A stretch of 64,000 nucleotides of DNA from Candidatus Omnitrophota bacterium (GTDB lineage Bacteria > Omnitrophota > Gorgyraeia > B26-G9): NCBI GenBank assembly GCA_043814605.1, contig JBDRJV010000002.1:26374-90373 (forward strand), read 5' to 3'. The position numbers and the translations under genes were made by a program. Positions 29,468 through 59,562 of the stretch are shown piece after piece. The notes beneath the pieces were generated by a model, which worked only from the letters and a program-made list of their open reading frames with translations, searched no databases and was not told the DNA's origin. The number at the start of each line of letters is the position of its first letter. Position 1 is the first letter of the stretch.

Positions 29468-30157
29468 TTAATTATTTAATTCTTTGGCTGCTATTTCAAC
29501 AATTAATTTTACCCCCTTAGCCAGGGATATCTCCAGTTTTACAAAATCTTTTTCTTTTATCACGCTGTTAGAAATTATTCTAAATCCTTTATCATTCTCA
29601 AGCCCCAGCATCTTAAATAAAAACTCCAGCACTTGAGTAATATTCTGCGTATCTAAAGATTGCTGCAAAGAAGAAAGCTTAACAAAAACAGTGCTTTGAT
29701 CCTGGCTTAGTTCAACAGAAATATCTTTAACTAATTGTGTAATATTTTGTATATTATTAAAGGAAGCCTTTATTTTACCAACTATGTCTTTTTGTTCTAA
29801 AGCTTCTTTAATTATATTTTTTAATTCCAGCGCATCCCAGGGTTTGGAAATAAAACGAAAGATTTCACCCTCATTAATTGTTTTAACTAAACTATCAAAA
29901 TCACTATAACCCGAGACCATGATCCGCATCGTATCTGGAAATTCTTTTTTAGCTATTCTCAAAACTTCAAATCCGTTCATTCCGGCCATTCTCTGGTCAC
30001 AAAGAATTAAATCTATTTTTTTCCGGCGTAAAATGTCCAGGCCTTCTGCCCCGTTAGCAGCAGTAAAAATATTATACTCTTTTTCAAATATACGTTTAAA
30101 TAAATGCAGTATATTTTCTTCATCATCTATACATAATAATGTATAAGTTTTGTCCAT
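29468..30157 (-). CDS. Orphan response regulator (REC plus an uncharacterised C-terminal domain).
   Basis: Receiver motifs (LLCIDDEENI…DLILCDQRMAGMNG…MVSGY). The last ~100 aa show no recognisable output domain. Confidence 0.7.
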   Translation of the reverse strand: MDKTYTLLCIDDEENILHLFKRIFEKEYNIFTAANGAEGLDILRRKKIDLILCDQRMAGMNGFEVLRIAKKEFPDTMRIMVSGYSDFDSLVKTINEGEIFRFISKPWDALELKNIIKEALEQKDIVGKIKASFNNIQNITQLVKDISVELSQDQSTVFVKLSSLQQSLDTQNITQVLEFLFKMLGLENDKGFRIISNSVIKEKDFVKLEISLAKGVKLIVEIAAKELNN

Positions 30158-30409
30158 TTTAATTTATCCTATAAAAATTATTTCCGCTGCGAACACTCTT
30201 TCTTATCTGCTTTTTTGTTTAAAGAAAATACTATTTTTGTTTTTTTTGTGCCAAAAGCTTTTGCACCAATTCATCAATTTCTGATTGAGAAAGTTTTCTG
30301 TTTGGGTCATGGGGAGGCTTGATTTCATTTTTATTGTCTTTTTTTTTCACAAACACACCTTATTTTAAACTTTCTTAATTATGTCAAAATATAAATTTTC
30401 TACCACTTA

Positions 30410-30513
30410 AATGGAACCCCCACTAAAGCCCGTGGTTCCTGGGGTGGAATACTCAAGCGGCCTTCTTTTATCCGCGCCATAAATGGGCGCGGTTTTAGGC
30501 CGCGGATGTATAA
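30410..30513 (+). repeat. GC-rich structured repeat, copy B, with a 4-nt deletion in hairpin 1.
   Basis: Same element as 27730-27837, in the same orientation. It lacks GGGC in the first stem. Confidence 0.7.
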
Positions 30514-30643
30514 GCAAAATAAAAGCGCCTAAATATTACCTTTGCAATAGACTATAATTATTAATGATATAATTTTACAATTTATTGAAAAATTATGCAA
30601 GGAAAAGAAATCTTTAAAGGCAGTAGCTAGAAGTACACTGCGT

Positions 30644-32074
30644 TTAATTCTTTGTTAATATAAAAAAGTAAGTAACCCCAAAATCGTCTGATTCAACAGA
30701 AAGAGCCGCAGGGCTAAACCCGCTATCATAAAACAACTTTACCACTTCATCCTTATTGCGGGGAATAAAAGACCAATTACAAAACCAGTCCGGCGCAATA
30801 GGCGCAAAAGTCTTTTCTTTATTCCTGTGAGTTACCAGCAATTTTCCCCCAGGAGCTAAAAGTTCATATAATTCTTTAAGTAAATCTGCCAGAATATCAT
30901 TTTTTAAATAATCCATTAAATTTATACTATAAATTAAATCTTTTTTTCCGTAACAGTGGGCCGATGCTTTATCATTAATTAAATCCAAAACATCTTTTTT
31001 CACTAATTTAAATTCAATATTTTCCGGTAGCTCTTTTAAAGTTGAGTCCCGCAAAAATTTTAAAGCTTCGAGGTTAGAATCAAAACAAGTAAAAATAATG
31101 TGTTTTTTTGTTTTAATTTCAAACAGTAACTCTCTAATTTCCCGGCACGAACCACAATTGAGATTTAAAATATTAATCTGAGCCAGCGGGCTCACTTGGA
31201 TAAAACTTTTAATTTTTTCCTTTAAATTATCCTTCCTCTGCCGTATGGCTACAGCATAAGGACTCTTTAAAAATACTTTATCAAAACAAAAACCAATATT
31301 ACTAGATATCGGCTTATTCTCATAAATCATTTCATTAATTTCAAAATCCCTTTTGTATCCCGGTTCGCTTTCTAACGCTTTTTTCACAATTATGCTTTTA
31401 TAAATCCAGGTTCCGGCTAGTGTTCTAAAGTTATCCTTAACTTTTTGTATCATTGTTTTATCCGAAATCAATTCTTCCAAACAATACCCTTTTAATAAAA
31501 TTTTATCATTAATATGCTCTAATTCTTTTTCTTGGCCGGGAATATATTCTTGTTTTTTTAAAGTGGAACAAAAATCCGAGACTTCATTTATATAATCTAA
31601 AACATCTTGAGAAAAGAAATGAGATATTTCTTTTTTTTCTGATAAATTTATATCTTCATTTAAAAATTTGTCGATTTGAATTTTAATTAACTCTTTTCTT
31701 AAAAAATCTCTTTTTTCATTGCCGATATTTAAAAATTCTGCCCCGTATAAAGATGTATTTTTTGATTCATTTTTATTCCAAATAATCCGGGCTTTGGCTT
31801 TAAAAGTCCGGCGATTATTCGGCAAATGTATTTTTAAGGAAATATGGGAAAGAGGAATTTTTTCTGATTGCTTGCTTTTTGGGAATTGTTTAGCGTCTTT
31901 GAATTCTTCCGGTTTTTTAGATTTCTTCGATTTTTTAGATTTTTTAGATAGGCTAAAGCTTAATCCTGTTTCACTAAAATCAATTACACTCGCACTTATC
32001 TTATCGGAAAGATCAACTTTAAGACGAGTTTTTATCCGAGGGCACAATCTTTTTTCTTCACTGCTTAAAACCAC
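30644..32074 (-). CDS. PilZ-domain / class-I SAM-dependent methyltransferase fusion protein.
   Basis: N-terminal RxxxR (RLCPRIKTR) and D-x-S-x-x-G (DFSETGLSF) PilZ motifs. A KKSKKSKKSKK low-complexity linker follows. The C-terminal Rossmann methyltransferase motifs are ILNLNCGSC, DLIYSINLMDYL and LAPGGKLLV. Confidence 0.6.
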   Translation of the reverse strand: MVLSSEEKRLCPRIKTRLKVDLSDKISASVIDFSETGLSFSLSKKSKKSKKSKKPEEFKDAKQFPKSKQSEKIPLSHISLKIHLPNNRRTFKAKARIIWNKNESKNTSLYGAEFLNIGNEKRDFLRKELIKIQIDKFLNEDINLSEKKEISHFFSQDVLDYINEVSDFCSTLKKQEYIPGQEKELEHINDKILLKGYCLEELISDKTMIQKVKDNFRTLAGTWIYKSIIVKKALESEPGYKRDFEINEMIYENKPISSNIGFCFDKVFLKSPYAVAIRQRKDNLKEKIKSFIQVSPLAQINILNLNCGSCREIRELLFEIKTKKHIIFTCFDSNLEALKFLRDSTLKELPENIEFKLVKKDVLDLINDKASAHCYGKKDLIYSINLMDYLKNDILADLLKELYELLAPGGKLLVTHRNKEKTFAPIAPDWFCNWSFIPRNKDEVVKLFYDSGFSPAALSVESDDFGVTYFFILTKN

Positions 32075-32272
32075 CAGAAACCACCTTCTTTCATAAGTGG
32101 ATAGCTTTTTATTTTTACAAGAAGATCTTATCTGCCCCCTTTCCTTTAGTTAATTATATCTGAATATGACGATAAACTCAAGGTCAAAACAAAATATTAA
32201 TTTTATTTTAATAGCACAACGGCTTAAAGATTTTACCCTTAAGCCGTTGAAATTATTAATAGTTAACTTAAT

Positions 32273-33229
32273 TTATTTTTTGCGGCCTGAGCCTCCCATT
32301 CCACCGCGGCTGCCACCTCTTTGCTGCTGTAATTGGCCTTGACCTTGGCCCGGACCTTTATCACGATTATAACCAGGTCCTCCAGGGCCTCTGCCTTGGC
32401 CTGGGCCTTGCCCTAGACCTCCTTGGCCATCACGTTTATCTTTAATATCCTCTCTGCGATCTCTGATATCTTCCCGTCTATCTTGACGGTCTTCACGCCG
32501 ATCCATAACATCTTCTCTGCGATCGCGACGATCTTCACGACGGTCAAGGACATCTTCACGTCTATCCATTACATCTTCTGCTTTATCTTTGCGAATATTT
32601 TCACCTAATTTATTTATTTGTCTTTCTAGCCTGGCTTTCTCTGCTGGATCAGTTGTATTAGTCAGCTGCTCTTGAAGATTACTCATTTTATCCGCTTTAA
32701 TTTTATCATCCCGGCGATCACGAATATCTTCTTGCCTATCTCTGATATCCTCCTGCTTATCCCAATAATCTTCTTTCCGGTCACGTATATCTTCTCTGTG
32801 ATCCATTACGTCTTCACGGCGGTCACGGACATCTTCACGCTGATCGCGATAATCTTCACGCCGGTCTCTAAATTGTTCACGATGTTCTTGCCCGGCCTGT
32901 TTCTCTGTATCATCAACTTGACCGTCATTATTGCGGTCTAAACGGTTCTGAAATCTTTCTCTAACTCTTTCTCTTTCTTGTTCATCTATTTTTCCATTAT
33001 TATTAGCATCTATTTTCTGCTTACGTTCTTGCCAGCGGTGCCTTTCTTTTGCATCTATTGCTCCGTCATCATTGCGGTCAATACGATCCTGCTTTGAACC
33101 CGGGCGAAAACTTCCAACACCTGTTCCAGCCTCACCTGTAGACTCTTGCGCAAAATTCAAACCGCAAAAAACAAAAATAAATGCTACCAAAAATACTCCT
33201 GCCCATAAAAATTTACTGCTTTTAAACAT
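32273..33229 (-). CDS. Secreted repeat protein with EF-hand-like loops, RED/heptad repeats and a Gly/Gln-rich tail.
   Basis: Signal peptide. Three DxNxDGxID..E loops (DRNDDGAIDAKE, DANNNGKIDEQE, DRNNDGQVDDTE). More than 15 tandem DRREDxx 7-aa repeats, encoded by a 21-nt periodicity. The C-terminus reads GQGGLGQGPGQGRGPGGPG…GGSRGGMGGSGRKK. Confidence 0.5.
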   Translation of the reverse strand: MFKSSKFLWAGVFLVAFIFVFCGLNFAQESTGEAGTGVGSFRPGSKQDRIDRNDDGAIDAKERHRWQERKQKIDANNNGKIDEQERERVRERFQNRLDRNNDGQVDDTEKQAGQEHREQFRDRREDYRDQREDVRDRREDVMDHREDIRDRKEDYWDKQEDIRDRQEDIRDRRDDKIKADKMSNLQEQLTNTTDPAEKARLERQINKLGENIRKDKAEDVMDRREDVLDRREDRRDRREDVMDRREDRQDRREDIRDRREDIKDKRDGQGGLGQGPGQGRGPGGPGYNRDKGPGQGQGQLQQQRGGSRGGMGGSGRKK

Positions 33230-46151: not shown

Positions 46152-48347
46152 TTATTTACGTTTTAAAAGCAGTTTGACCCGAGCTAACAACCTGACTCCG
46201 TCAAAAGGTTTGGCAATATAATCATCAGCTCCGGCATCTAATCCTTCAATCTCACTACTTGTATCTTTTTTAGCGGTAAGGAGAATAATCGGAATCCCCG
46301 CTGTTTTTAATTCAGACCGGATCCTGCGCGTTGCTTGAAATCCGTCCATAACCGGCATCATTACATCCATAATTAATAAATCCGGCGCTGTTCTCATACA
46401 GGCTTCAAAAGCTTCCTGGCCGTTTTCCGCTTCAATAATATCAAACCCTGCACTTTTTAAGCGCATACCCACAAGCTTACGAATATTTTTTTCATCATCT
46501 GTAACCAGAACCAGTGGTTTTTCCCGCAGAGGTTTTTGTTTAATAAGTTCTGTCTCAATCTGTTTCGGTTTTCCTTCTGGTTTTACTGCTGGTTTTACTT
46601 CTGGCTGGCCCTCAACTAAAGATTTTTCTTCAACCTGTTCTAAAACTGAAGTCTGCGTAACCTCTTCCAGAGTTGTTATCCCTAAAGCAACTTTCTCTAT
46701 CCCCGCCTCAGCCAAACTCCTTAACCCGGAATTTTGCGCCATAAGCGCAATTTCTGTTTGGGTTGCATTTTCTGAAACAAGAGCTTTAATTTTTTTCGTA
46801 AATTCAAATAGTTCCACAATCGCTACGCGGCCTAAATATCCGCTAAAACTGCATTCCGCACACCCCTTACCGTGATAAAATTTAGAGATACTGTATTTTT
46901 TAATAAAATTGGCAAATTTTTCCTGTAATTTTTTATCCGGGTTATATCCTTCTTTACAATGCGGGCAAATAACCCGCACCAAACGCTGCGCAATAATCAA
47001 AACTACAGAAGAAGCAATTAAATATGGCTCAAGGCCAATATCCAGAAGGCGGCTGATTGAAGATACCGCGTCATTAGTGTGCAATGTGGAAAAAACCAGA
47101 TGCCCGGTTAACGCAGCTTTAAACGCAACCTCTGCGGTCTCTGAGTCCCGGATTTCCCCGACTAAAATCACATCCGGGTCCTGGCGCAAGATACTACGCA
47201 GTCCGGCAGCAAAAGTAACATCTTTTTTCGGGTTAATCTGAATCTGGTTAATCCCTTCCATTAAATATTCAATCGGGTCTTCAACTGTAACAATATTTTT
47301 TGTCTCATTTTTTATATAAGCCAAGGCCGCATAAAGCGTGGATGTTTTCCCGGACCCTGTCGGCCCGGTAACTAACACCATTCCCTGCGGCCGGGTAAAA
47401 ACTTCTTTCATTATTTCCAATTCATTCGGAGCAAAACCTAATGTATCTATTTTAATTTTGGCTTTTTGCGGGTCTAATACGCGAAATACAATTTTTTCTC
47501 CGTAATAAGCCGGGATAATGGAAATTCTCAAATCAATTTTCCGGTTATTATACATTATATCTGCCCGGCCGTCTTGCGGTTTTCTTGTCTCCGCAATATC
47601 AAGATTAGAAAGAATTTTTACACGGGCTGTAAATTGCGGATACATTTCACTGGGAATTTTCATAATATTTTTTAAATAACCGTCCACGCGGTAACGTACA
47701 TCCACAAAATTTTCTTGCGGCTCAACATGAATATCCGTCGCCCGGTTACGGATAGCGTCGCTTAAAATAACTTTGACTAATCTGACCACCGGAGAACGTT
47801 CTAAATCAAATCTATTTGCATCAGTTATTTTGCCATCCGATGATTTATCATCCTTGATTACCTCTAAAGAAGAATCATCAACAATATTTTTTAATAAATC
47901 ATAGAGCGAATCATCAATATGATAGTGTTTTTCAATCTGGGTGGCAATATCTGTTTTACTGGCCAATACCGGCTGAATCGGGAATTTAACTAATAACCTT
48001 AAATCATCTAAAGCCACAATGTCCTGGGGATTACTCATAGCCAGAAGCAAATTGTTATTTTCCGTACGGATGGGGAAAACTCCGTAACGCCTGGCTAAAT
48101 CATAGGAAATTACTTTTATTGCATGATCATCTATTGTTTGGCCATTTAAGTTAATGATCGGCATTTTAAAAAAGCGCGATAAAACTTCCATCATTTTCTC
48201 TTCTGCAATAAATCCCATTTCTACTAATACATCTTGGATCGGGATTTTTGCACCGAGTTGACGCTGGCGCGCTTCTTGTAACTGAGCATCCGTAATAAGC
48301 TTTTCCTCAATTAAAACAGTTATTAATGTTTTAAACACAAGCTTCAC
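46152..48347 (-). CDS. GspE/PilB-family secretion/pilus ATPase fused to a C-terminal receiver domain.
   Basis: T2SSE_N-like N-domain, Walker A GPTGSGKTST, the VGEIRD motif and the His-box TLHTND. The C-terminal ~130 aa is a REC domain (LVLVTDDEKNI…DLLIMDVMMP…ILLTAKKD). Confidence 0.85.
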   Translation of the reverse strand: MKLVFKTLITVLIEEKLITDAQLQEARQRQLGAKIPIQDVLVEMGFIAEEKMMEVLSRFFKMPIINLNGQTIDDHAIKVISYDLARRYGVFPIRTENNNLLLAMSNPQDIVALDDLRLLVKFPIQPVLASKTDIATQIEKHYHIDDSLYDLLKNIVDDSSLEVIKDDKSSDGKITDANRFDLERSPVVRLVKVILSDAIRNRATDIHVEPQENFVDVRYRVDGYLKNIMKIPSEMYPQFTARVKILSNLDIAETRKPQDGRADIMYNNRKIDLRISIIPAYYGEKIVFRVLDPQKAKIKIDTLGFAPNELEIMKEVFTRPQGMVLVTGPTGSGKTSTLYAALAYIKNETKNIVTVEDPIEYLMEGINQIQINPKKDVTFAAGLRSILRQDPDVILVGEIRDSETAEVAFKAALTGHLVFSTLHTNDAVSSISRLLDIGLEPYLIASSVVLIIAQRLVRVICPHCKEGYNPDKKLQEKFANFIKKYSISKFYHGKGCAECSFSGYLGRVAIVELFEFTKKIKALVSENATQTEIALMAQNSGLRSLAEAGIEKVALGITTLEEVTQTSVLEQVEEKSLVEGQPEVKPAVKPEGKPKQIETELIKQKPLREKPLVLVTDDEKNIRKLVGMRLKSAGFDIIEAENGQEAFEACMRTAPDLLIMDVMMPVMDGFQATRRIRSELKTAGIPIILLTAKKDTSSEIEGLDAGADDYIAKPFDGVRLLARVKLLLKRK

Positions 48348-48351
48348 CTTT

Positions 48352-49104
48352 TTAATTTAATATTTCTTTTATTTTTGCCAATAATTCTTCGGCACTAAAA
48401 GGCTTGGTCAAATAACCGCTAATTTCCTCTGTCTCTAAGAGACTTCTTATCTCTTCCCCGGCACAAGCACTTAAAATTAATACGGGTATTTTAGGAATTG
48501 ATTCATCCCCTTCACTGGATTGCCTTAGTTCTTTTAGTGTAATCAAAGTGCTGTAACCATCCATTTCCGGCATCATTACATCGAGTAAAATTAAATCCGG
48601 TTTAGCCGCCATGATTTTTTCAATACATTCAACCCCGTTACTAGCAGTGATTACATCATAACCATTCGCTTTTAACCTGAACTCCATTAATTTAACTACA
48701 TGCGCCTCATCATCAACAATGAGTATTTTTTTCCTACGGGAAGGGGCCGCAATCTCAGAAGAAAACTTATTAATAATTTTATCAATATCTTCTAATTCAC
48801 AAGGCTTACTTAAATATTCATCTACACCAACGGATTTAGCAAAAAAATCCTGCATGCCGGAATATCCGGTTAAAATCACGGTTTTTGTCCTGATTTTATT
48901 TTCTTTGATAAACTTCACCAGCTCCATCCCGGTCATTTCCGGCATATTATGATCAATAAAAGCGACATCATAATTATTTTCTTTAATCATTTTTTTTGCC
49001 TGCAAACCATTCTCGGCAATCTCAATAGTGTGCCCCTTCCGCGTTAAGTAAGTATTTAACAAATCTGTAATTATTTTAGTATCATCGGCAACTAATATTT
49101 TCAT
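48352..49104 (-). CDS. Dual-receiver (REC-REC) response regulator.
   Basis: Two complete receiver domains (ILVADDTKII…FIDHNMPEM…; ILIVDDEAHV…LLDVMMPEMDG…). No output domain. Confidence 0.8.
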   Translation of the reverse strand: MKILVADDTKIITDLLNTYLTRKGHTIEIAENGLQAKKMIKENNYDVAFIDHNMPEMTGMELVKFIKENKIRTKTVILTGYSGMQDFFAKSVGVDEYLSKPCELEDIDKIINKFSSEIAAPSRRKKILIVDDEAHVVKLMEFRLKANGYDVITASNGVECIEKIMAAKPDLILLDVMMPEMDGYSTLITLKELRQSSEGDESIPKIPVLILSACAGEEIRSLLETEEISGYLTKPFSAEELLAKIKEILN

Positions 49105-49146: not shown

Positions 49147-51363
49147 TCATAACAAATATCTGACTAATTTTTTAAGTTGTGATAATTCCATGGGTTTGCC
49201 AATAACCGGAATAGCTTTTTTCTTAACATAATCACTTATCTTTTCAAACTCAATAGAATATCCGGAAACAATCATAATTGGGATATCTTTGGTTTTCATG
49301 TCTTCTTTAAGCCGGCCAATTACTTCATACCCGTTCATTTTAGGCATTTGCATGTCGAGGATAATTAAGTCCGGAATATTATTATCGATTACTTTAAAAA
49401 CATCCTCACCGTTATTAACCGCATTCAGATTATTATATCCAATATTTTTTAGAGATTTTTGCATAAAAAATACAATGTCCATACTGTCATCGGCAATAAG
49501 AATTTTCTTTTTCAAGCGTTCTGATTTTTCGCTAACCATTGACCGGCAAGCTAGCGCAAAAAGTTCTTCGGCGTTGGATGCAGCTTTAGGAAAACTAGCC
49601 CAGCCGTAAGAAAAGTCCAGCTCCAGTTCATCATTAAATTTAAAAATCTCATTTTTTACAATCCTTTTTAAGCGTTCCTGCCAAGCAGCTGCATCATGCG
49701 AGGCAATATCAGCAATTAGAATAATCTGTCTTAATTCCAGAATCAGAAACGGTTCTACGGACCCGATTATTTGTTTAAGTTTGTAAAAAATTTCGTATAA
49801 AACTGTCGTAATTTTATTATCCCCCTCCTGTTTTATAATTTCCTCAGTCGGATTTAAAGACAAGACAAAAACAGCACACTCCCTTTCCTCTTTACTAGAT
49901 TTATTAATTAATTGTCCCAGCGATTCCAAGACAAGCTGTTTTTGCGTAGTTTGTTTCGGCAGGGTAAAAATAAATTTTGTGCCTTTATTTATTTCGCTTT
50001 CTACCCAAATTTGGCCATGATGTAATTCAATTATTCCTTTACAAATTGCTAATCCCAAGCCAGTCCCTTTTTCTCCCGGTCCATATTGCCGGTCAAATTG
50101 TTTAAATTTATCAAAAACACTCACAATCTCATCCGGCGTTAATCCTTTGCCTGTATCAATAACCGCGCATTGGATCATTTCCCCCTGATCACTAACAGAA
50201 ATTTCAATTTTCCCTTTTTGCGTAAATTTTAAGGCATTGCCCATAAGATTAGTCAGCACTTGGATTATTTTATCGCGGTCTGCATTGACCTCAATTTGAT
50301 CGCCGGAAAAACTTGTGATCATTTCTATTTTTTTCTCTTTTAACCTTGGCGTAAAAGTATTTTGTACGCTTTTGATCACGCTAATCATGTCAAAATTATC
50401 TTTATATAATTCAACTTTTTGTGCCTCGAGCTTGGATATATCTAATAAATCATTAATGATTCTCATTAAACGGTCTACATCCTGTAAACAGATTAAAAGA
50501 AAATCTCTTTGCTCAGCTGTGGTCGGGCCTAATATTCCGTCTAAAATTTGAGAAACAACTTCCCGGATAGTAGTTAAAGGAGTCCTTAGTTCATGAGAAA
50601 CAGTACTGATTAAATCATCCTTAAGCTGTTCATTTCTTTTACTTTCAGTAATATCTTTAATTACATGTATAATTTTAATCATTTCTTGTTTTTCATTTAG
50701 AATAGGCGTGACCGCTATTTCCACATATTTTTTTAAACGTGAATCATAGGTTTGAATAAATTCTTGTTTTTTGCTTTTTAATACTTTTTTATACGGGCAA
50801 TTTTTTATGCATTCATTTGTTCCGTGAACAACTGTATGGCAAATTAATCCTCGACACTCCTCAACCCCAATATTATAAGCACGCGCAAAAGCCTGATTTA
50901 CCATTAGCAAACGGCCTTCCTGATCCATAACCGAAACTATATCGGTTAAAGAATTAAATGTATTTTCTAAATTCTCCGCAAGCTGAATAATTTTGCCTTC
51001 TTCTCTTTTACGCTCGCTAATATCCTCAAAACATTCCACCACGCCAATAATCTGACCATTTTTATCCGTCAAAACCTCGGCTTTTTTAAATATTAAACAA
51101 AATTTTCCGTCTTTTCTTTTAATTATGCATTCTTTATTTTTTATCGGTGTTTTGATATCTTTAGCAAAAATCTGGCAGACTTTCTGACAGCTTTGCTCAA
51201 TAAAAAAATCACATTTTTTCCCGATAGCTTCCTCTTTAGTATATTGAGTGATTGCTTCGGCTTGATTGTTCCAATGGGTAATAATTTTATTATTATTTAA
51301 ACAATACACACCATAAGGCATAGTTTCAAACATTAATTCATAATATAAATTTTTATTTTCCAT
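49147..51363 (-). CDS. Hybrid PAS sensor histidine kinase with a C-terminal receiver.
   Basis: Two PAS modules, H-box VSHELRTPLTTIREV, HATPase_c (DTGKGLTPDE…GTGLGLAICKG), an uncharacterised middle domain and a REC domain (ILIADDSMDI…LIILDMQMPKMNG). Confidence 0.8.
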   Translation of the reverse strand: MENKNLYYELMFETMPYGVYCLNNNKIITHWNNQAEAITQYTKEEAIGKKCDFFIEQSCQKVCQIFAKDIKTPIKNKECIIKRKDGKFCLIFKKAEVLTDKNGQIIGVVECFEDISERKREEGKIIQLAENLENTFNSLTDIVSVMDQEGRLLMVNQAFARAYNIGVEECRGLICHTVVHGTNECIKNCPYKKVLKSKKQEFIQTYDSRLKKYVEIAVTPILNEKQEMIKIIHVIKDITESKRNEQLKDDLISTVSHELRTPLTTIREVVSQILDGILGPTTAEQRDFLLICLQDVDRLMRIINDLLDISKLEAQKVELYKDNFDMISVIKSVQNTFTPRLKEKKIEMITSFSGDQIEVNADRDKIIQVLTNLMGNALKFTQKGKIEISVSDQGEMIQCAVIDTGKGLTPDEIVSVFDKFKQFDRQYGPGEKGTGLGLAICKGIIELHHGQIWVESEINKGTKFIFTLPKQTTQKQLVLESLGQLINKSSKEERECAVFVLSLNPTEEIIKQEGDNKITTVLYEIFYKLKQIIGSVEPFLILELRQIILIADIASHDAAAWQERLKRIVKNEIFKFNDELELDFSYGWASFPKAASNAEELFALACRSMVSEKSERLKKKILIADDSMDIVFFMQKSLKNIGYNNLNAVNNGEDVFKVIDNNIPDLIILDMQMPKMNGYEVIGRLKEDMKTKDIPIMIVSGYSIEFEKISDYVKKKAIPVIGKPMELSQLKKLVRYLL

Positions 51364-52707: not shown

Positions 52708-53571
52708 TTAGTCTGATAGATATTCACTCGCAATGTAGGAACTGCGTACATACGGCGCGCTTTCCACATGTTTAAAACCTAATTCCTGGGCTCTTATTTT
52801 ATAAAAAACAAAATCTTTCGGCTTTATGTACTCAACTACAGGGTAATAGTTTTTCCCCGGGGATAAATACTGCCCGATACTGAGAAAATCACAACGGCTA
52901 TTTTTTAAATCATCAAGCACAGTTAAAACCTCTTCTTTTCTCTCCCCTACTCCCAGCATAATGCCTGATTTTGTATAAATATAGGGATTAATTTCCTTGG
53001 CCAGTTTTAATATGCCCAAAGAGCGTTTATAGTTTGCCTGAGGCCGGATTTTTGGATATAAATCTGGTACAGTTTCCACATTGTGCGCAAAAATATCCGG
53101 ACAGGCTTTGGTTACACTTTCAATAGCAGCATAATCAGCTTGAAAATCCGGCACTAACACTTCCACTTTAATATCCGGATTAATTTTACGGATTGCTTTA
53201 ATTGTGCGCACAAACATCTCAGATCCCTGATCCTTTAAATCATCCCGCGTTACACTGGTAATTACTACATGCCTCAGGCCCATTTTTTTTACAGCCTGGG
53301 CCACATTATCCGGCTCGTTAAAATCAGGCACTAGCGGCTTTCCCGTATCAACCGCACAGAAATTACAATTTCTCGTACAAATACTACCTAATATTAAAAA
53401 AGTCGCAACTCTCTTCGAAAAACATTCCCCGATATTCGGGCATTGCGCTTGCTGGCAAACTGTATTCAGTTTTAGCCCTTTAAAAAGACGTTTCAATTCT
53501 TCACACCCTTTTAAATTAATTTTTTTATTCAGCCAGGACGGCCGGCGTATTTCCGATGTTTTTTCTATCAT
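52708..53571 (-). CDS. lipA: Lipoyl synthase.
   Basis: N-terminal RRPSWLNKKI, auxiliary-cluster Cys residues (CQQAQCPNIGEC) and radical-SAM CTRNCNFC. Confidence 0.9.
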   Translation of the reverse strand: MIEKTSEIRRPSWLNKKINLKGCEELKRLFKGLKLNTVCQQAQCPNIGECFSKRVATFLILGSICTRNCNFCAVDTGKPLVPDFNEPDNVAQAVKKMGLRHVVITSVTRDDLKDQGSEMFVRTIKAIRKINPDIKVEVLVPDFQADYAAIESVTKACPDIFAHNVETVPDLYPKIRPQANYKRSLGILKLAKEINPYIYTKSGIMLGVGERKEEVLTVLDDLKNSRCDFLSIGQYLSPGKNYYPVVEYIKPKDFVFYKIRAQELGFKHVESAPYVRSSYIASEYLSD

Positions 53572-54376
53572 TTTCTCTAATTTTAGTCTGCCGATAATTG
53601 TTCCAATTTTTTGTATTATATTTTTCTTTTATCAGCCTATTCGTTAATTCTTTTTCAAAATCAGTCAGCTCTGCTTTATTTAATTCTAAAGAAAACATTT
53701 GTTTGAAATTATCAATTAAAGCACAGCGAAGCTGATCAAAATCAATATTTTTATTCAAAGCCTGCGATAACGAAATAATTTTATTTTCAAGATTAACAAA
53801 TTTCTCTTTAAAAATAGATTTTATTTCTCCAAAATCTAAAGCTAAAGGAAGAGAACCGTGCTGAAAAATAAAATTTTTTTCTCTTTTTTGTGCATTGCCG
53901 CCAATTTTTTTATTATTTATTAAAATATCGAATTTTTCCCGGGTGGCAAAACAAAAATTAGATTCATCCCCGTGCGTATAATCTCCTTTTGTATCGGCAA
54001 AATAAGCACAAAGGCCCAGGCTTTTATAAGTATTGATAATAAATGCAGTTAATATTTTAAAACTTTTTCTTACGGAATCTCCTAAATCCAGATCATTTTT
54101 TGTGCAAACCAGGCTATAAGTAAGTTCCTGATCGTGAAAAATTGCTTCTCCGGCGCTGATGCGTCTTACATATTCGATTTGTTTTGCTTTGCATAAATCA
54201 AGATGCAAAACAGCCTGCGGATTTTGCCTTATTCCTAAAGATATGCTGGGTTTCTGCCAACTGTATATGCGTAATGTAGGCCGAATAAGGCCTTGCTTAT
54301 AGGATTGAAATATCGCTTCATCAATAGCCATATTGGTATAAGCATTGCCAGGATCAGAAAGTATTAAACGCCACAT
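53525..54376 (-). CDS. Lipoate-protein ligase / octanoyltransferase-family protein (LplA/LipM-like).
   Basis: BPL_LplA_LipB catalytic domain (PTLRIYSWQKPSISLGIRQN…GEAIFHDQELTYSL). It overlaps the lipA start by 47 nt. Confidence 0.7.
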   Translation of the reverse strand: MWRLILSDPGNAYTNMAIDEAIFQSYKQGLIRPTLRIYSWQKPSISLGIRQNPQAVLHLDLCKAKQIEYVRRISAGEAIFHDQELTYSLVCTKNDLDLGDSVRKSFKILTAFIINTYKSLGLCAYFADTKGDYTHGDESNFCFATREKFDILINNKKIGGNAQKREKNFIFQHGSLPLALDFGEIKSIFKEKFVNLENKIISLSQALNKNIDFDQLRCALIDNFKQMFSLELNKAELTDFEKELTNRLIKEKYNTKNWNNYRQTKIRENDRKNIGNTPAVLAE

Positions 54377-54428
54377 AGCAAATTGGTAAACTGTTAAAGG
54401 GTTATACTGTTAAATTACGAAAAACTAA

Positions 54429-54803
54429 TTATTTTGTTAATTTTGTATCTGTATAAGAGATAAGATGGTTTATTTCTACAGGCAGTTTATTTAACTCTTT
54501 GGTTATATATTCACATTGTTCTTTGGTCAGTAATTTTCTTTTCTCTGCTTTATTAATCCAGTCAAACGATTCCTTTAAAGAGCCAAAGCTGTAACGATAA
54601 AAATTAATTTTATCTTTTTTAAAATATCGGCCGAAACCTTCTGCTATATTTGCAGATATTGAATCAACCGATTCTACTAATTGCTGGCCAACAGTACGTT
54701 TAGCAAAATAATCCCATTTTGTTACAATATCCCAAATATAATTAGATAAACTGAAGGAAATTTTATAAGAACTAATGTCTTCCAATAATAAATACTTTTT
54801 CAT
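54429..54803 (-). CDS. Four-helix-bundle protein (rRNA intervening-sequence protein family).
   Basis: GQQLVESVDSISANIAEGFGR… fits the family consensus. No SD precedes it; the 8-bp tandem repeat abuts its start codon. Confidence 0.6.
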   Translation of the reverse strand: MKKYLLLEDISSYKISFSLSNYIWDIVTKWDYFAKRTVGQQLVESVDSISANIAEGFGRYFKKDKINFYRYSFGSLKESFDWINKAEKRKLLTKEQCEYITKELNKLPVEINHLISYTDTKLTK

Positions 54804-54805
54804 AT

Positions 54806-54872
54806 TGTCAGTTTAACAGTTTAGCAGTATAACAATTTAGCAATTTAACAATTTAACAGTATAACAATTTAT
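54806..54872. repeat. Second array of 8 copies of the 8-bp AATTTAAC tandem repeat.
   Basis: Units AGTTTAAC, AGTTTAGC, AGTATAAC, AATTTAGC, AATTTAAC x2, AGTATAAC and AATTTATT lie between the gcvPB stop and the four-helix-bundle start. Confidence 0.75.
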
Positions 54873-56317
54873 TTTCGCCATCTCAGGTTTAAATCGCGTG
54901 CGGCTTTTGTTTCATCCAGCCTTTTCACCGGCATATTCTGCGGAGCATTTTTTAAAACTTGCGGATCTTCTTGAACCAGTTTTGCAGCAGTAATCATCAC
55001 TGCAATAAAATTATCTAGAGTTTCTTTGGATTCTGTTTCTGTCGGCTCAATCATTAAGGCTTCTTTAACAATCAACGGGAAATATACTGTCGGAGGATGA
55101 ATCCCCTGCGCAATCAGATATTTTGCAATATCTAAGGCACTGGTCCCCTTTTCTTTAGCTTTAGCTAAGGATAAAACAAATTCATGCATACAAATACGAT
55201 CATAAGGAACATCAAAATATTTTTTTAAAAGCACGCGGACATAATTTGCATTAAGTACAGCCAGTTCTGCAACTTCGATTAATCCCGCAGCCCCGAGCAT
55301 CATGATATAAGCATAACTTTTAAGGATAACGCTGAAATTACCGCAAAACGGCGCAATATAACCTAAGGATTTTGGGGCATTATAATTTAACGCATATGTT
55401 CCATCCGTGCGTTTAATAACCCGAGAAATTGGCAGATAAGGTTCCAGTTTTTTGTTTACTCCCACCGGACCCGCTCCCGGACCGCCGCCGCCATGAGGAG
55501 TAGCAAAAGTTTTATGCAGGTTTAAATGCACAATATCAAACCCTAAATCACCTGGCCGAGCCTTACCTAAAATCGCATTAAGATTAGCTCCATCATAGTA
55601 GACCAGTGCTCCTACTGCATGCGCAGCATCACAAATTTGTTTAATTTGGGGATTAAAAATCCCAAGCGTGTTGGGACAAGTTAACATTACTCCGGCAATA
55701 TCTTTATTTAACTTACTTTTATACTCATCAAAATTCATACAGCCATTTTTATCAGTAGAAACAACAATAACTTCATAACCAGCTATTGCCGCACTTGCAG
55801 GATTAGTGCCATGCGATGAATCCGGAACAATAATATATTTACGTTTTTCATTATTAAAACGATGATATGCGGCAATGATCATTGCCCCGGTAAGTTCTCC
55901 GTGCGCCCCGGCTAAAGGCTGCATTGTAAAAGCACTCATCCCGGTAATTTCCGCTAAAACTTTTTCTGTTTTATAGACTACTTCTAAAGAACCTTGCGCT
56001 AACATCCCGCCGCCCCTTAATTGAGGCATTAAAGGATGCAAATTTATAAACCCATCCAGACTTGCAATTTTCTCTGTAAATTTAGGATTATACTTCATTG
56101 TACAAGACCCCAGCGGATAAAAATTTGTATCTACGGAAAAATTCATACGGGATAAATTAGTATAATGGCGTACAACATCTAATTCAGAAACTTCCGGCAA
56201 ATCTGCACTTTCTGCTCTGGCATATTCTTTTGGGAATTTAAGATCTTTTTTTACCGTGCACTCAGGAAGCTTGAACCCGTTTGTCCCTTTTCGGCTTTTC
56301 TCAAATATTAATCGCAT
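54869..56317 (-). CDS. gcvPB: Glycine dehydrogenase (decarboxylating) subunit 2.
   Basis: PLP-Lys motif NLHKTFATPHGGGGPG. The likely start is MRLIFEK at 56317; the ORF extends to 56344. Confidence 0.9.
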   Translation of the reverse strand: MRLIFEKSRKGTNGFKLPECTVKKDLKFPKEYARAESADLPEVSELDVVRHYTNLSRMNFSVDTNFYPLGSCTMKYNPKFTEKIASLDGFINLHPLMPQLRGGGMLAQGSLEVVYKTEKVLAEITGMSAFTMQPLAGAHGELTGAMIIAAYHRFNNEKRKYIIVPDSSHGTNPASAAIAGYEVIVVSTDKNGCMNFDEYKSKLNKDIAGVMLTCPNTLGIFNPQIKQICDAAHAVGALVYYDGANLNAILGKARPGDLGFDIVHLNLHKTFATPHGGGGPGAGPVGVNKKLEPYLPISRVIKRTDGTYALNYNAPKSLGYIAPFCGNFSVILKSYAYIMMLGAAGLIEVAELAVLNANYVRVLLKKYFDVPYDRICMHEFVLSLAKAKEKGTSALDIAKYLIAQGIHPPTVYFPLIVKEALMIEPTETESKETLDNFIAVMITAAKLVQEDPQVLKNAPQNMPVKRLDETKAARDLNLRWRK

Positions 56318-57645
56318 AATACTGCCTCTAAACTTTCTGCACACTTAATAATTTCTTCTTTTGTTCTTTTTTCCGTAACAGTTACTAAAAGATAATTCTG
56401 CATATTTTTATAAAATCTGCTTAAGGGAAACCCACAGGCAAACCCCTTATTAATCATTTTATTCACAACTTCACCGGCATTTTGCGGCAGTAATACAGTA
56501 AATTCATTGAAAGTCGGAGAACGTTTTTTTACTTCCACCCCAGGGATTTGACCAAAAATTTCCTTAGCAAATTCCGCTTTTTTGTAATTAATTTCCGCTA
56601 ATTCTTTTAATCCTTGTTTGCCTAATAATGATAAATAAATAACTGCCCGCAAAGCACAAAGCGCTTCATTACTGCAAATATTAGAAGTCGCTTTTTCCCG
56701 GCGGATATGCTGTTCCCGTGCCTGAAGAGTTAAAACAAAACCGCGTTTACCATCTTCATCTACGGTTTCCCCGACAACTCTGCCCGGGATTTTACGTAAG
56801 TATTCTTTTTTTACAGCCATAAAGCCTAAATAAGGACCGCCAAAAGAAAGCGGCAAGCCTAAACTTTGTCCTTCGCCTGTAGCAATATCCACATCCATTT
56901 CCGCAGGGCTCTTAAGTAATCCTAAAGCAATCGGATATACCGATTGAATTAATAAAGCCCCTGCCGCATGTGCTTTTTTCACAATATCAGAATGGTCATC
57001 AATTACGCCAAAAAAATTAGGGTTTTGCACAATTACCGCTGCGGTTTTATCATCTAAATATTTATAGATTTCATCGCGGTAACTGTGTCCATGGACAACC
57101 TGAGTCTCGATAAACTCAACTGCCAAATTTTTTGTATAGCTATAAAGCATACTCCGGTAAACAAGATTTACGCCGCTATCCACAATTATTTTTCTGCGGC
57201 CGGTAATGCGTACTGCCATCATTGCGGCTTCATACAAAGCCGTGCCTCCATCATAAAGTGAAGCATTTGACGCGTCCAGTCCGGTTAATTGACAGATTAC
57301 GCTTTGGTATTCATAAATAGCCTGTAACCATCCTTGTGAACATTCCGGCTGATAAGGGGTGTAAGCTGTATAAAATTCAGAACGGCCGGCTATTGCATCT
57401 ACAGCCGCAGGAATATAATGGTCATAAAAACCTGCCCCTAAAAAATTAATGAGATTCGTGGCATTTTTTGCGGCCAGTTTTTTAAAATGTTCGATAACTT
57501 CAAACTCAGATTTACCTTCTGGTAAATTAAAAGACTGCGCTTTTAAATCATCCGGGATATCACAAAATAATTCATCAATTTTGGATACACCGATGGTTTT
57601 GAGCATTGATTTTATTTGTTCTTTAGTATGGGGAGTATATCCCAT
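56308..57645 (-). CDS. gcvPA: Glycine dehydrogenase (decarboxylating) subunit 1.
   Basis: 445 aa GcvPA homolog. Its stop overlaps the gcvPB start. Confidence 0.9.
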   Translation of the reverse strand: MGYTPHTKEQIKSMLKTIGVSKIDELFCDIPDDLKAQSFNLPEGKSEFEVIEHFKKLAAKNATNLINFLGAGFYDHYIPAAVDAIAGRSEFYTAYTPYQPECSQGWLQAIYEYQSVICQLTGLDASNASLYDGGTALYEAAMMAVRITGRRKIIVDSGVNLVYRSMLYSYTKNLAVEFIETQVVHGHSYRDEIYKYLDDKTAAVIVQNPNFFGVIDDHSDIVKKAHAAGALLIQSVYPIALGLLKSPAEMDVDIATGEGQSLGLPLSFGGPYLGFMAVKKEYLRKIPGRVVGETVDEDGKRGFVLTLQAREQHIRREKATSNICSNEALCALRAVIYLSLLGKQGLKELAEINYKKAEFAKEIFGQIPGVEVKKRSPTFNEFTVLLPQNAGEVVNKMINKGFACGFPLSRFYKNMQNYLLVTVTEKRTKEEIIKCAESLEAVLCD

Positions 57646-58031
57646 TATGAAAGCTCCTCTAAATATTTTAGATAATCAGCCGGTGTTATTAAATTATCTT
57701 TTTCTTTGTGATCAGAAACTTCAATAATTAGAAACCAACCCTTTTCATAAGGAGATTGATTAATTAATTCCGGCTGATTAACAACATCCTGATTTATTTC
57801 TCTAACTTTACCGGACAAAGGGGCATAAACATCTGATGCTGCTTTTACGGATTCAACTGTGGCGATTTGTTTTGACTGTACGCATTCTGCATTAATCTTA
57901 GGGAGTTCCACAAAAGTAATATCGCCTAACGAACCTTGAGCATAATCAGTTATGCCTATTTTAGCACGATTATTCTCAATTTTCACCCATTCATGCTCTT
58001 TGGTATACAATAAATCCTGGGGTACATTCAT
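57645..58031 (-). CDS. gcvH: Glycine cleavage system H protein.
   Basis: Lipoyl-Lys region (VESVKAASDVYAPLSGKV). The preferred start is MNVPQDLLYTKEHEW at 58031, with GGAGG 7 nt upstream. Confidence 0.85.
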   Translation of the reverse strand: MNVPQDLLYTKEHEWVKIENNRAKIGITDYAQGSLGDITFVELPKINAECVQSKQIATVESVKAASDVYAPLSGKVREINQDVVNQPELINQSPYEKGWFLIIEVSDHKEKDNLITPADYLKYLEELS

Positions 58032-58035
58032 AAAA

Positions 58036-58066
58036 TTCCTCCATAATTGTCCCGCTACAGCGGGAT
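58036..58066 (-). promoter_or_regulatory. Near-perfect 13-bp-arm hairpin/palindrome abutting the gcvH ribosome-binding site.
   Basis: On the gene strand: ATAATTATCCCGC-TGTA-GCGGGACAATTAT, immediately followed by GGAGG and the ATG. Confidence 0.4.
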
Positions 58067-58200
58067 AATTATGCCTCGCCACTGTAGATTTCTTTGCGTT
58101 TACTTGGCGGGCAAGTTAAAATTCCAGCCATAAAAAATAAATCCAGAAAACTATTGTTAGCTCTCAAACATTTTATTCTTTTGCAGATACTGTCTCTTAT

Positions 58201-58310
58201 TTATACATCCGCGGCCTAGAACCGCGCCCATTTATGGCGCGGATAAAAAAGGAGGTCGCTTGAGTATTCCACCCCAGGAACCACGGGCTTTAGCCTGTGA
58301 GGGTTCCATT
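58201..58310 (-). repeat. GC-rich structured repeat, copy C, inverted and lying inside the gcvT–gcvH spacer.
   Basis: Reverse complement: AATGGAACCCTCACAGGCTAAAGCCCGTGGTTCC…CCGCGCCATAAATGGGCGCGG…GGCCGCGGATGTATAA. It has about 6 differences from copy A. Confidence 0.7.
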
Positions 58311-58470
58311 CACACCGGAACACCGTTGGCGAGGCCTAACTTCGTTCGACGATTCGTGTTCGCTCTTGAGGCAATATTTGCTTTTTTAGCCTCAATCCGT
58401 GCCCGCTCACACTTCTCAACGTCCGGTTTTGAATAAATAAGCCATCAACTATCAGCTAGTTACTCTCTAC

Positions 58471-59562
58471 TCAAATTCGGGCTGTTCCTTTTTTATAAAA
58501 TGGTTTTTCTGTTATTTTTGCTTTAATTTCTATCTCTTTATCTTTTAATATAATTTCCGTTCCGGGTGTAATAAAATTTATATCTACATAGCCCATCCCA
58601 ATACCGCAAGTTAAGCTGGGCGAAAAAGACCCGCTTGTAACAACTCCAATTTTTTTATCCCCAAAAAAAATATCATAATTATGCCGGGGTGCACGCCTTG
58701 ATTCCGTAATAAAAAAAGTGAGTTTTTTAGTAATCCCCGCTGCTTTTTGCTTTGCTAAAGACTCTTTTCCGATAAAATCTTTACTAAAATCAAGCACTTT
58801 TTCAAATCCCGCTTCCAGCGGGGTTATGTTGATATCAATGTCTTGTGAATATAATGGATAGCCTGCTTCCAATCTTAAAGTATCTCGTGCTCCAAGCCCT
58901 GCTGGTTTAACCCTTTCATCTGACAAAAGAGTTTTCCACAATTCTGATATTTTATCATTACTGATATATAATTCATAGCCTAATTCACCTGTATATCCGG
59001 TGCGGCTAATGATTATATTTTCGTTTAATATATTAAAACGATCAAAATTATAATATTTTAAATTTTCAAATTTTTCTTTATCAATAAGCATCTTTAATAC
59101 TGCTTTTGCTTGCGGACCCTGCAAATCTAATTTTCCGGTTATTTGTGAAATATCTTTCCACTCAGTATTTTTACTTAAATTCTTTCTTAAATGTTCTTTA
59201 TCTGAATCTTTTGTTGCCGCATTAACAACCAACATGTATTCATTATCTTTAATCCGATAAACAAGTACATCATCAATAATCCCGCCAGCTTGATTTAACA
59301 TAAAACCGTATTTACAGCTTTTGACCGGCATCTTTTGCGTATTAACTGTAACTATCTTTTCAAATGAAAGATCATCCGCAGGTACTTGTACAATAAACTC
59401 ACCCATATGGCAAATATCAAAAATCGAACATTTTTTCCTCGTCCAATTATGCTCAGTAATAATTCCTTGGTATTGGATCGGCATCAGCCACCCGCCAAAA
59501 CCCGCCATGCGTGCTTTAAGCTGCTTATGCTCTTCTAATAACCTTGTTACTTTCTCTTTCAT
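58471..59562 (-). CDS. gcvT: Glycine cleavage system aminomethyltransferase.
   Basis: 363 aa GcvT homolog (…FGGWLMPIQY…DICHMGEF…). Confidence 0.9.
   Translation of the reverse strand: MKEKVTRLLEEHKQLKARMAGFGGWLMPIQYQGIITEHNWTRKKCSIFDICHMGEFIVQVPADDLSFEKIVTVNTQKMPVKSCKYGFMLNQAGGIIDDVLVYRIKDNEYMLVVNAATKDSDKEHLRKNLSKNTEWKDISQITGKLDLQGPQAKAVLKMLIDKEKFENLKYYNFDRFNILNENIIISRTGYTGELGYELYISNDKISELWKTLLSDERVKPAGLGARDTLRLEAGYPLYSQDIDINITPLEAGFEKVLDFSKDFIGKESLAKQKAAGITKKLTFFITESRRAPRHNYDIFFGDKKIGVVTSGSFSPSLTCGIGMGYVDINFITPGTEIILKDKEIEIKAKITEKPFYKKGTARI

Follow-up and report, generated by a model that had tools for sequence, protein, structure and literature searches.

A gene on the minus strand (30644..32074) of a 64,000-nucleotide stretch of the genome of a Candidatus Omnitrophota bacterium (contig JBDRJV010000002.1; the whole stretch is hereafter called the window) probably encodes a small-molecule methyltransferase of the PhcB type that is gated by cyclic di-GMP (c-di-GMP). 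Its uninterrupted open reading frame (ORF) of 476 aa, with a GTG start, encodes in this order a PilZ domain, a helical cap and a class I S-adenosylmethionine (SAM)-dependent methyltransferase; all the features of this gene described below lie on the minus strand. The assignment of the substrate to the small molecules is supported by homology to PhcB and by the capped small-molecule methyltransferases that are its closest folds, and the gating by c-di-GMP is what we infer from the PilZ motifs.

An earlier note, made from the sequence alone, had recognized a PilZ-methyltransferase (PilZ-MTase) fusion by four motif strings, all of which are present in the translated protein (RLCPR at aa 9-13, DFSETG at aa 32-37, LNLNCGSC at aa 303-310 and LAPGGKLLV at aa 406-414), and a Pfam run on the protein bears out this architecture. 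The ORF is a real gene, and the PilZ and methyltransferase domain calls both stand.

The PilZ domain

The PilZ domain comprises aa 8-126 (31697..32053) and is predicted to form a beta-barrel interrupted by an insertion. The Pfam model PF07238 matches the full window protein with 28.5 bits, against a gathering cut-off of 22.5, in a match that is split in two. The RxxxR motif, R9-L-C-P-R13 (32036..32050), and the D/NxSxxG motif, D32-F-S34-E-T-G37 (31964..31981), were assigned by conservation in the family and by alignment to Alg44 and YpfA. A search of the Protein Data Bank (PDB) with an N-terminal profile returned PilZ proteins only, with weak E-values (0.05-1), and in it the family sequence K-R-x-x-P-R aligned to RRQYVR of YpfA and QRQFAR of Alg44, and D-L-S-E-G-G to NISAGG and DLSAGG, respectively. 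The earlier note had named the lack of a PilZ match, or motifs that would not align, as what would speak against its PilZ call; the profile finds PilZ structures, both motifs align to those of PilZ proteins and the Pfam score lies above the cut-off.

In an alignment of the window protein with 34 homologues, R9, R13 and G37 do not vary and S34 is conserved to 90 % or more, and all four positions still reach at least 90 % across 64 much more diverse representatives. Because of this conservation within the family, a direct input of c-di-GMP to the enzyme can reasonably be supposed, and the motifs suggest that the PilZ domain would be the part that binds it. The AlphaFold2 (AF2) model of the protein predicts barrel strands at aa 13-15, 19-23, 26-34, 37-43, 78-83, 90-104 and 107-114, then a helix at 119-138, which corresponds to the six- to seven-stranded barrel with a C-terminal helix expected of a PilZ domain. 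This helix (31661..31720) is the connector to the catalytic part, and within it L125, R126 and L129 reach 90 % conservation or more in the 35-member alignment. In other PilZ proteins, the C-terminal helix is the element that contacts the partner (10.1101/814665).

The insertion that splits the Pfam match is Lys/Ser-rich and 27 residues long (aa ~42-70; 31865..31951). It follows directly after the DxSxxG strand, and it is found in the window protein only, being missing from the other 34 aligned members, so that it is lineage-specific. Part of it is a KKS repeat, for which the DNA has tandem copies of a 9-nt unit, TTTTTTAGA on the plus strand (31913-31949; Tandem Repeats Finder period 9, 4.1 copies). 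The earlier note had described this repeat correctly, and had taken the (KKS)n tract for a linker between the two domains. That role is ruled out by the PilZ matches on both sides of it, by the family alignment and by the AF2 model, in which aa 46-71 form a disordered loop (predicted local distance difference test, pLDDT, <50) between the barrel strands 37-43 and 78-83. Moreover, when the insert was deleted in silico, a split PilZ match of 33.6 bits became a single match of 42.4 bits over profile positions 2-97 of 102. The (KKS)n tract thus belongs to a disordered insertion inside the PilZ barrel that is unique to the window protein.

The methyltransferase core and its cap

The catalytic part was described in the earlier note as a class I Rossmann methyltransferase of some 300 aa. 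The class is supported by Pfam, AF2 and Foldseek; the size is not, since this part consists of a core of about 180 aa (aa 299-476; 30647..31180) preceded by a helical cap or lid domain of about 150 aa (aa 144-294; 31193..31645; AF2 helices, Foldseek). The Pfam matches on the core are Methyltransf_20, Methyltransf_12 and Methyltransf_25, of which PF12147 (Methyltransf_20) passes its cut-off narrowly (21.8 bits against 21) and the other generic methyltransferase models stay below theirs. The AF2 model (mean pLDDT 83.4; predicted template modelling score 0.79) shows alternating beta and alpha elements over residues 299-475.

Within the core, LNLNCGSC (aa 303-310; 31145..31168) is a variant of the SAM-binding motif I, its counterparts in the alignments being motif I of histamine N-methyltransferase and, in the PhcB family, LNVGCGPA; its G308 is at least 90 % conserved in the 35-member alignment and invariant among the 64 representatives. 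D332, the acidic residue that closes strand 2, is invariant in the 64 representatives as well. LAPGGKLLV (aa 406-414; 30833..30859) is the conserved GG/GK-L strand of the Rossmann fold and aligns to RPGGRLLVT of the PhcB family, L406 and G410 being invariant in the 35-member alignment.

A Foldseek search of the PDB gave about 800 methyltransferase matches at E <= 1e-3. The best folds are capped small-molecule methyltransferases (3ocj, SgvM, CurJ C-MT, SibL, PigF, ChlM, NNMT and HNMT), and none of the closest solved folds is a protein or nucleic-acid methyltransferase. The entry 3ocj is the Bordetella parapertussis 'possible exported protein' solved by structural genomics. Together with SgvM, CurJ C-MT, SibL and PigF it provides the best folds for the cap plus the Rossmann domain (E = 8e-11 to 1e-8), but these five proteins have no detectable sequence kinship with the window protein, lack a PilZ domain and have substrates that are unrelated or unknown. 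A search of the PDB sequences with the full-length profile likewise found no close solved relative, its sole match being histamine N-methyltransferase at E = 0.037.

Homology to PhcB

PhcB, a SAM-dependent methyltransferase encoded in phcBSRQ of the Ralstonia solanacearum species complex, Cupriavidus and Paraburkholderia, forms two quorum-sensing signals, methyl 3-hydroxymyristate and methyl 3-hydroxypalmitate, for which the kinase PhcS is the sensor (PMC10576176, PMC6989110). The name of one JGI homologue first pointed to this protein. A tblastn search of plasmids then found, in Paraburkholderia graminis, a gene for a 468-aa methyltransferase with a histidine kinase gene 1 nt downstream and two receiver genes after it. 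This operon (locus L035, 5383-9758, on plasmid pPHS1_P) encodes the methyltransferase, the histidine kinase, a 134-aa receiver and a 344-aa receiver, essentially the phcBSRQ layout. Relatives of the P. graminis methyltransferase that are 64-92 % identical to it, from Paraburkholderia, Cupriavidus, Massilia and Pseudoduganella, are named PhcB in JGI and NCBI, a distribution that agrees with the range of homologues in PMC6989110. The plasmid pPHS1_P is a conjugative plasmid of 494 kb, so that the quorum-sensing module of the Phc type may be capable of horizontal transfer.

Profile comparison with hhalign aligned the query family to the Paraburkholderia methyltransferase with a probability of 99.5 % (E = 4e-22) and to a 20-member PhcB-family profile with 99.6 % (E = 7e-24) over query aa 222-455, so that, by sequence comparison, the catalytic module is homologous to PhcB. 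The homologous part, about 230 residues, includes a signature K-P-x-G-Y-x-G-D-Y that precedes the Rossmann fold in both families, a R-x-R-K/D helix, motif I as LN(I/V)xCGxxxEI, D-Y-L-x-D and a W...R-N tail. In the window protein, the signature is degenerate (S-E-P-G-Y-K-R-D-F, aa 236-244; 31343..31369). The lengths are similar (463-468 aa in PhcB, about 450 aa in the query family), and the elements come in the same order, an N-terminal beta-rich domain followed by a helical region and the Rossmann fold. The gene arrangement is shared as well, since in the family at large the methyltransferase gene is directly followed by the gene of a membrane histidine kinase, with receiver genes alongside. 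The taxonomic ranges differ, PhcB being a protein of Burkholderiales and PilZ-MTase one of Omnitrophota and other uncultured lineages.

The two families also differ in their N-terminal parts. The alignment ends at about query aa 222 and PhcB aa 205, and is therefore not full-length. The N-terminus of PhcB has neither RxxxR nor DxSxxG, gave no Pfam match and no PilZ signal, and in a PDB profile search found only chance matches to Brr2. A PilZ domain hidden in PhcB was considered and dropped for want of sequence support, the hhalign probability of a PilZ profile against the PhcB family being 0.09 %. The first ~95 residues of the PhcB family are highly conserved and beta-rich (aa 1-95 of P0198) and occupy the same position as the PilZ domain of the query family, and the AF2 model of a Cupriavidus PhcB homologue, which is of low confidence (pLDDT 62), has there a six-stranded beta-domain of PilZ-like size. 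PDB searches returned no solved PhcB structure, and in PMC6989110 the N-terminal half of PhcB and its structure were uncharacterised; that study found R22C, a change of an invariant residue within the N-terminal domain, to be adaptive in an evolution experiment. The predicted likeness of this domain to PilZ can be taken as a structural hint, a lead only.

A conserved signalling module

The earlier note had suggested looking at the genes downstream of homologues, and these include a conserved seven-transmembrane (7TM) kinase. In local hidden Markov model scans of 34 loci, which underlie all counts in this paragraph, the next gene downstream of the PilZ-MTase gene encodes a HisKA_7TM-GAF histidine kinase in 13 of 24 loci, its start codon often overlapping the stop codon of the PilZ-MTase gene; in 18 of 26, such a kinase gene is no more than 3 kb away. 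An orthologous stand-alone receiver of 124 aa is encoded directly upstream in 16 of the 21 informative loci, and a small HTH_17 gene is often found ahead of it. The methyltransferase of the family is thus genetically coupled to a receiver and a membrane kinase. More distant relatives that lack PilZ (loci L028, L029, L031 and L033) are likewise followed by the kinase. In addition, GGDEF, EAL or HD-type genes are close by in some loci (GAF-GGDEF in L001, PAS-GGDEF-EAL in L037), and type II fatty acid synthase/polyketide synthase (FAS/PKS)-like genes flank the module in a minority of them (L005, L006, L007).

Some members carry the receiver domain (REC) in the same polypeptide, as in P0315 (REC-PilZ-MTase) and P0348 (REC-x-MTase). 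These fused domains score 122-141 bits on the profile of the partner receiver, against about 45-65 bits for unrelated receivers, which suggests, by a Rosetta-stone argument, that the receiver would act on the enzyme.

Several genomes contain a second methyltransferase paralogue without PilZ, of 340-347 aa and about 30 % identical to the query core (e.g., L002 2335-3378 and L006 11898-12920), with a receiver and a 7TM-GAF kinase of its own. The receiver-methyltransferase-kinase triad is therefore tandemly repeated in these genomes, with and without the c-di-GMP input domain.

Distribution of the family

A search with the full-length query rendered 76 homologues, most of them of about 450 aa with PilZ and PF12147, the best being only about 50 % identical, and those with an organism name are all from Candidatus Omnitrophota. 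The exact window protein sequence had no match in a collection of 15 billion proteins. Among GTDB species representatives, the family is found in metagenome-assembled genomes only, mostly of Omnitrophota with a few bins labelled Nitrospirota, Planctomycetales and Clostridia, and more distant relatives without PilZ occur in Endomicrobiales, Calditrichaeota and others. The catalytic superfamily comprises 6046 clusters (50 % identity, E <= 1e-3), and PilZ was detected in 56 of 64 long diverse representatives (best E = 2e-24), some with PilZ in tandem. Database annotation of the members goes no further than 'PilZ domain-containing protein' or 'class I SAM-dependent methyltransferase'. We did not accept the names given by the sources (PhcB-like, CheR-like, trans-aconitate MTase, RidA, DUF1796) as evidence, since they contradict one another.

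Proposed mechanism and known systems

We propose that the protein works as three parts, a c-di-GMP-binding PilZ domain, its C-terminal helix leading into the helical cap, and a PhcB-type SAM methyltransferase acting on a small molecule. Binding of c-di-GMP would wrap the RxxxR loop onto the DxSxxG face of the barrel, upon which the C-terminal helix and the attached cap would shift over the active site, so that methyl transfer would be switched by the level of c-di-GMP. In most genomes the enzyme would operate within a signalling module made of the small HTH protein, the 124-aa receiver, the PilZ-MTase and the 7TM-GAF histidine kinase, in which the receiver could provide a second, phosphorylation-dependent input. 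Since the module parallels phcB-phcS, the product is most likely, by analogy, a methylated and probably lipid-derived signal or effector molecule, which would be tied to the kinase/receiver pair as the PhcB product is to PhcS. It is conceivable, as a rather doubtful extension, that receiver, PilZ-MTase and 7TM-GAF kinase constitute, in Omnitrophota and other uncultured phyla, a so far unrecognised class of quorum-sensing-like autoinducer circuit whose synthase is gated both by c-di-GMP and by the phosphorylated receiver.

Several components of this model are already known. In the cellulose synthase BcsA, PilZ gates a glycosyltransferase in cis, and binding of c-di-GMP releases or activates catalysis. 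As in BcsA and Alg44, PilZ is here covalently joined to an enzyme or lies within an enzyme complex, but the output of the window protein is a soluble SAM methyltransferase instead of a membrane polysaccharide synthase, and PilZ is N-terminal instead of C-terminal as in BcsA. Control of a methyltransferase by PilZ in trans is known from Pseudomonas aeruginosa, where the single-domain PilZ protein MapZ binds c-di-GMP and inhibits the chemotaxis methyltransferase CheR1 (10.1101/814665). In both cases c-di-GMP would control a SAM-dependent methyltransferase via PilZ, and in MapZ the PilZ C-terminal helix is the contact (10.1101/814665); however, MapZ acts in trans on a protein-glutamate methyltransferase, whereas the PilZ domain of the window protein would act in cis on a small-molecule methyltransferase of the PhcB type, and its score on the CheR Pfam model is below the cut-off (15.6 against 27 bits). 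The remark in the earlier note that no characterised example was known to it thus needs correction with regard to the catalytic module, which has a characterised homologue in PhcB, and to PilZ control in trans, which has one in MapZ-CheR1. A literature search found no description of a PilZ-MTase fusion, of its homology to PhcB or of the module, in a coverage that was incomplete and so is not proof of absence.

Weighing the evidence

Some observations weigh against the proposal, both for the family and for the window copy. With PhcB there is only about 21-25 % identity, over aa ~222-455 and no further; because of this, and because the N-terminal ~200 aa of PhcB do not align, the substrate specificity of PhcB cannot be transferred to the window protein. 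The kinase sensors differ: the family has HisKA_7TM-GAF, and the Paraburkholderia kinase that served as the PhcS counterpart gave a MASE8-like match that was weak (17.6 bits, below the cut-off of 26.2). The source names point in as many directions as PhcB-like, CheR-like and trans-aconitate MTase, and the case for c-di-GMP binding and gating in the family consists of sequence motifs. As to the window itself, Pfam scans of about 60 ORFs found no HisKA_7TM kinase and no partner receiver, so that the PhcB-type arrangement of a gene directly followed by a sensor kinase with receivers is seen in the family at large but not in this gene, a further difference from PhcB. An unambiguous diguanylate cyclase was not found in the 64 kb either, the sole GGDEF match scoring 22.8 against a cut-off of 23.8. 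The window protein also departs from the consensus of the family at 10 of the 89 columns that are highly conserved, among them K236S/P237E in the signature shared with PhcB, D334N and G385N. Because both partners are absent and these columns deviate, the activity or specificity of the window copy may have changed. Its branch is also rather long, no relative being more than 53 % identical to it. Other divergent members show deviations in comparable number, and every invariant residue is retained. By its sequence, the window copy appears to be an orphan that has diverged but still functions, and not a pseudogene.

The tight linkage of the gene to those of a histidine kinase and a receiver, which often includes translational coupling, and the existence of REC fusions could also be explained by a CheR-like adaptation enzyme that methylates the 7TM-GAF kinase or the receiver and so tunes two-component signalling, with c-di-GMP acting through PilZ as in the precedent of MapZ and CheR (10.1101/814665). 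One JGI name ('chemotaxis methyl-accepting protein methylase') and a weak Pfam CheR match in the SAM-binding region (PF01739; 15.6 bits, and 18.8 bits for the PhcB-like protein) would fit such a role. That match, however, covers just 47 residues (aa 371-417) and is far under the 27-bit cut-off, there is no CheR_N match and hence no sign of the CheR N-terminal domain, every top fold match is a small-molecule methyltransferase, and the sole characterised homologue, PhcB, yields a small-molecule ester (PMC10576176). We consider a protein-methylating function to be very unlikely. A small-molecule substrate would also be compatible with a tailoring enzyme of a lipid or polyketide pathway, with a structural or metabolic role in which c-di-GMP would adjust envelope or lipid chemistry. 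The modules in L005, L006 and L007 are flanked by genes for a ketosynthase, an acyl carrier protein, a FabA/ApeI-like dehydratase, a ketoreductase, an acyltransferase, a polyketide-cyclase-like protein and a nitroreductase; PKS C-methyltransferases (CurJ, AprA, citrinin CMeT) are among the matching folds, and there was a tblastn match to the methyltransferase domain of a type I PKS. But such FAS/PKS-like genes occur at a minority of loci, the conserved neighbours being the receiver and the kinase, and none was found among the window ORFs scanned with Pfam (~60 ORFs). A dedicated tailoring role appears unlikely, and the flanking genes would be equally compatible with a signal synthase, to which they could supply a 3-hydroxyacyl substrate.

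It can also be the case that the PilZ domain does not bind c-di-GMP and serves for protein interaction or as a scaffold only, as in the xanthomonad PilZ-FimX pair, so that c-di-GMP would not control the enzyme; non-binding PilZ domains are known (10.1101/814665), and the 27-residue insertion directly after the DxSxxG strand may have disabled binding in the window copy. The N-terminal beta-rich domain of the PhcB family, which is devoid of PilZ motifs, points the same way. Yet the window protein has kept both motifs intact and at least 90 % of the diverse members share them, which would not be expected of a degenerate domain, and the model places the insertion in a disordered loop on the outside of a barrel whose pLDDT is still ~80-90. 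This possibility is therefore regarded as rather improbable, and a PhcB-type small-molecule methyltransferase gated by c-di-GMP remains the reading that we favour.

The gene start and the surroundings of the window copy

The GTG start is credible because the homologues, too, begin 8 residues ahead of the invariant R9 (35-member alignment). By direct reading of the sequence, a Shine-Dalgarno-like AAGGTGG (32081..32087) is found 6 nt 5' of it, and the best sigma-70-like promoter match, TTGAGT-17-TATAAT (32153..32181; 10/12), lies about 80 nt 5' of the start; the latter is no more than a fit to the consensus, and such sites are not more numerous than expected from shuffled sequences. A short hairpin on the minus strand (32081-32100; CCACTT...AAGGTGG) has the Shine-Dalgarno sequence paired in its stem, and a 9-codon out-of-frame upstream ORF (ATGAAAGAAGGTGGTTTCTGGTGGTTTTAA) overlaps the GTG start. 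These two features may reflect translational control or chance.

The downstream neighbour on the minus strand encodes a 229-aa receiver (29468..30157; Pfam Response_reg) whose C-terminal half has no assignment. It was rejected as the partner receiver of the family, scoring 50 bits on the corresponding profile versus 170-213 bits for the orthologues. The spacer of 487 bp between the two genes contains a GC-rich island (30400-30515; 53 % GC versus about 25 % in the flanks), which on the plus strand folds into two hairpin domains (minimum free energy -46.9 kcal/mol; z = -3.2; equalled by 1 of 200 shuffled sequences) and more weakly on the minus strand. Rfam gave no match for the window, and for the island none at the gathering score or at E <= 1. 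The island is a candidate small RNA or repeat element. Upstream, also on the minus strand, lies the gene for a putatively secreted protein of 318 aa (32273-33229) with a signal-peptide-like N-terminus, EF-hand-like DxNxDGxID motifs, long charged RED/DRRED runs and a Gly/Gln-rich tail, for which a weak EF-hand_5 match is the sole Pfam signal.

Further away, a T2SSE type II/IV secretion ATPase with an N-terminal MshEN domain and a C-terminal receiver is encoded on the minus strand (46152-48347), next to a tandem-REC protein (48352-49104) and to a PAS-PAS-HK-REC hybrid kinase (49147-51363) that bears the sub-threshold GGDEF match. MshEN is another type of c-di-GMP receptor, and the presence of this ATPase beside the tandem-REC and hybrid kinase genes indicates that c-di-GMP signalling exists in the organism.

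A glycine-cleavage block on the minus strand (52708-59562; gcvT, gcvH, gcvP1, gcvP2, lipoate-protein ligase and lipoyl synthase) has a syntenic counterpart in the left flank of locus L006 (1-2485). There, it is followed by a cluster with an acyltransferase, the 7TM kinase, the receiver and the PilZ-MTase; in the window, different genes are found at that place, a difference that would fit a loss or a relocation of the module in this genome.

Implications

The characterised effectors of c-di-GMP are mostly concerned with motility, secretion, polysaccharide synthesis and transcription. If the proposal is true, the direct outputs of c-di-GMP would gain the enzymatic making of a small methylated molecule, possibly a diffusible signal, and second-messenger and cell-cell signalling would be coupled in one enzyme. 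Should the module indeed be an autoinducer circuit, which we put forward tentatively, a second messenger would for the first time be seen to act on an autoinducer synthase directly, and the N-terminal beta-domain of PhcB, the site of R22C, would be a degenerate relic of a PilZ input. The family offers a handle on PhcB, an important virulence-regulating enzyme. Moreover, it is large and conserved, and its hosts are all uncultured lineages, chiefly Omnitrophota, about whose signalling next to nothing is known.

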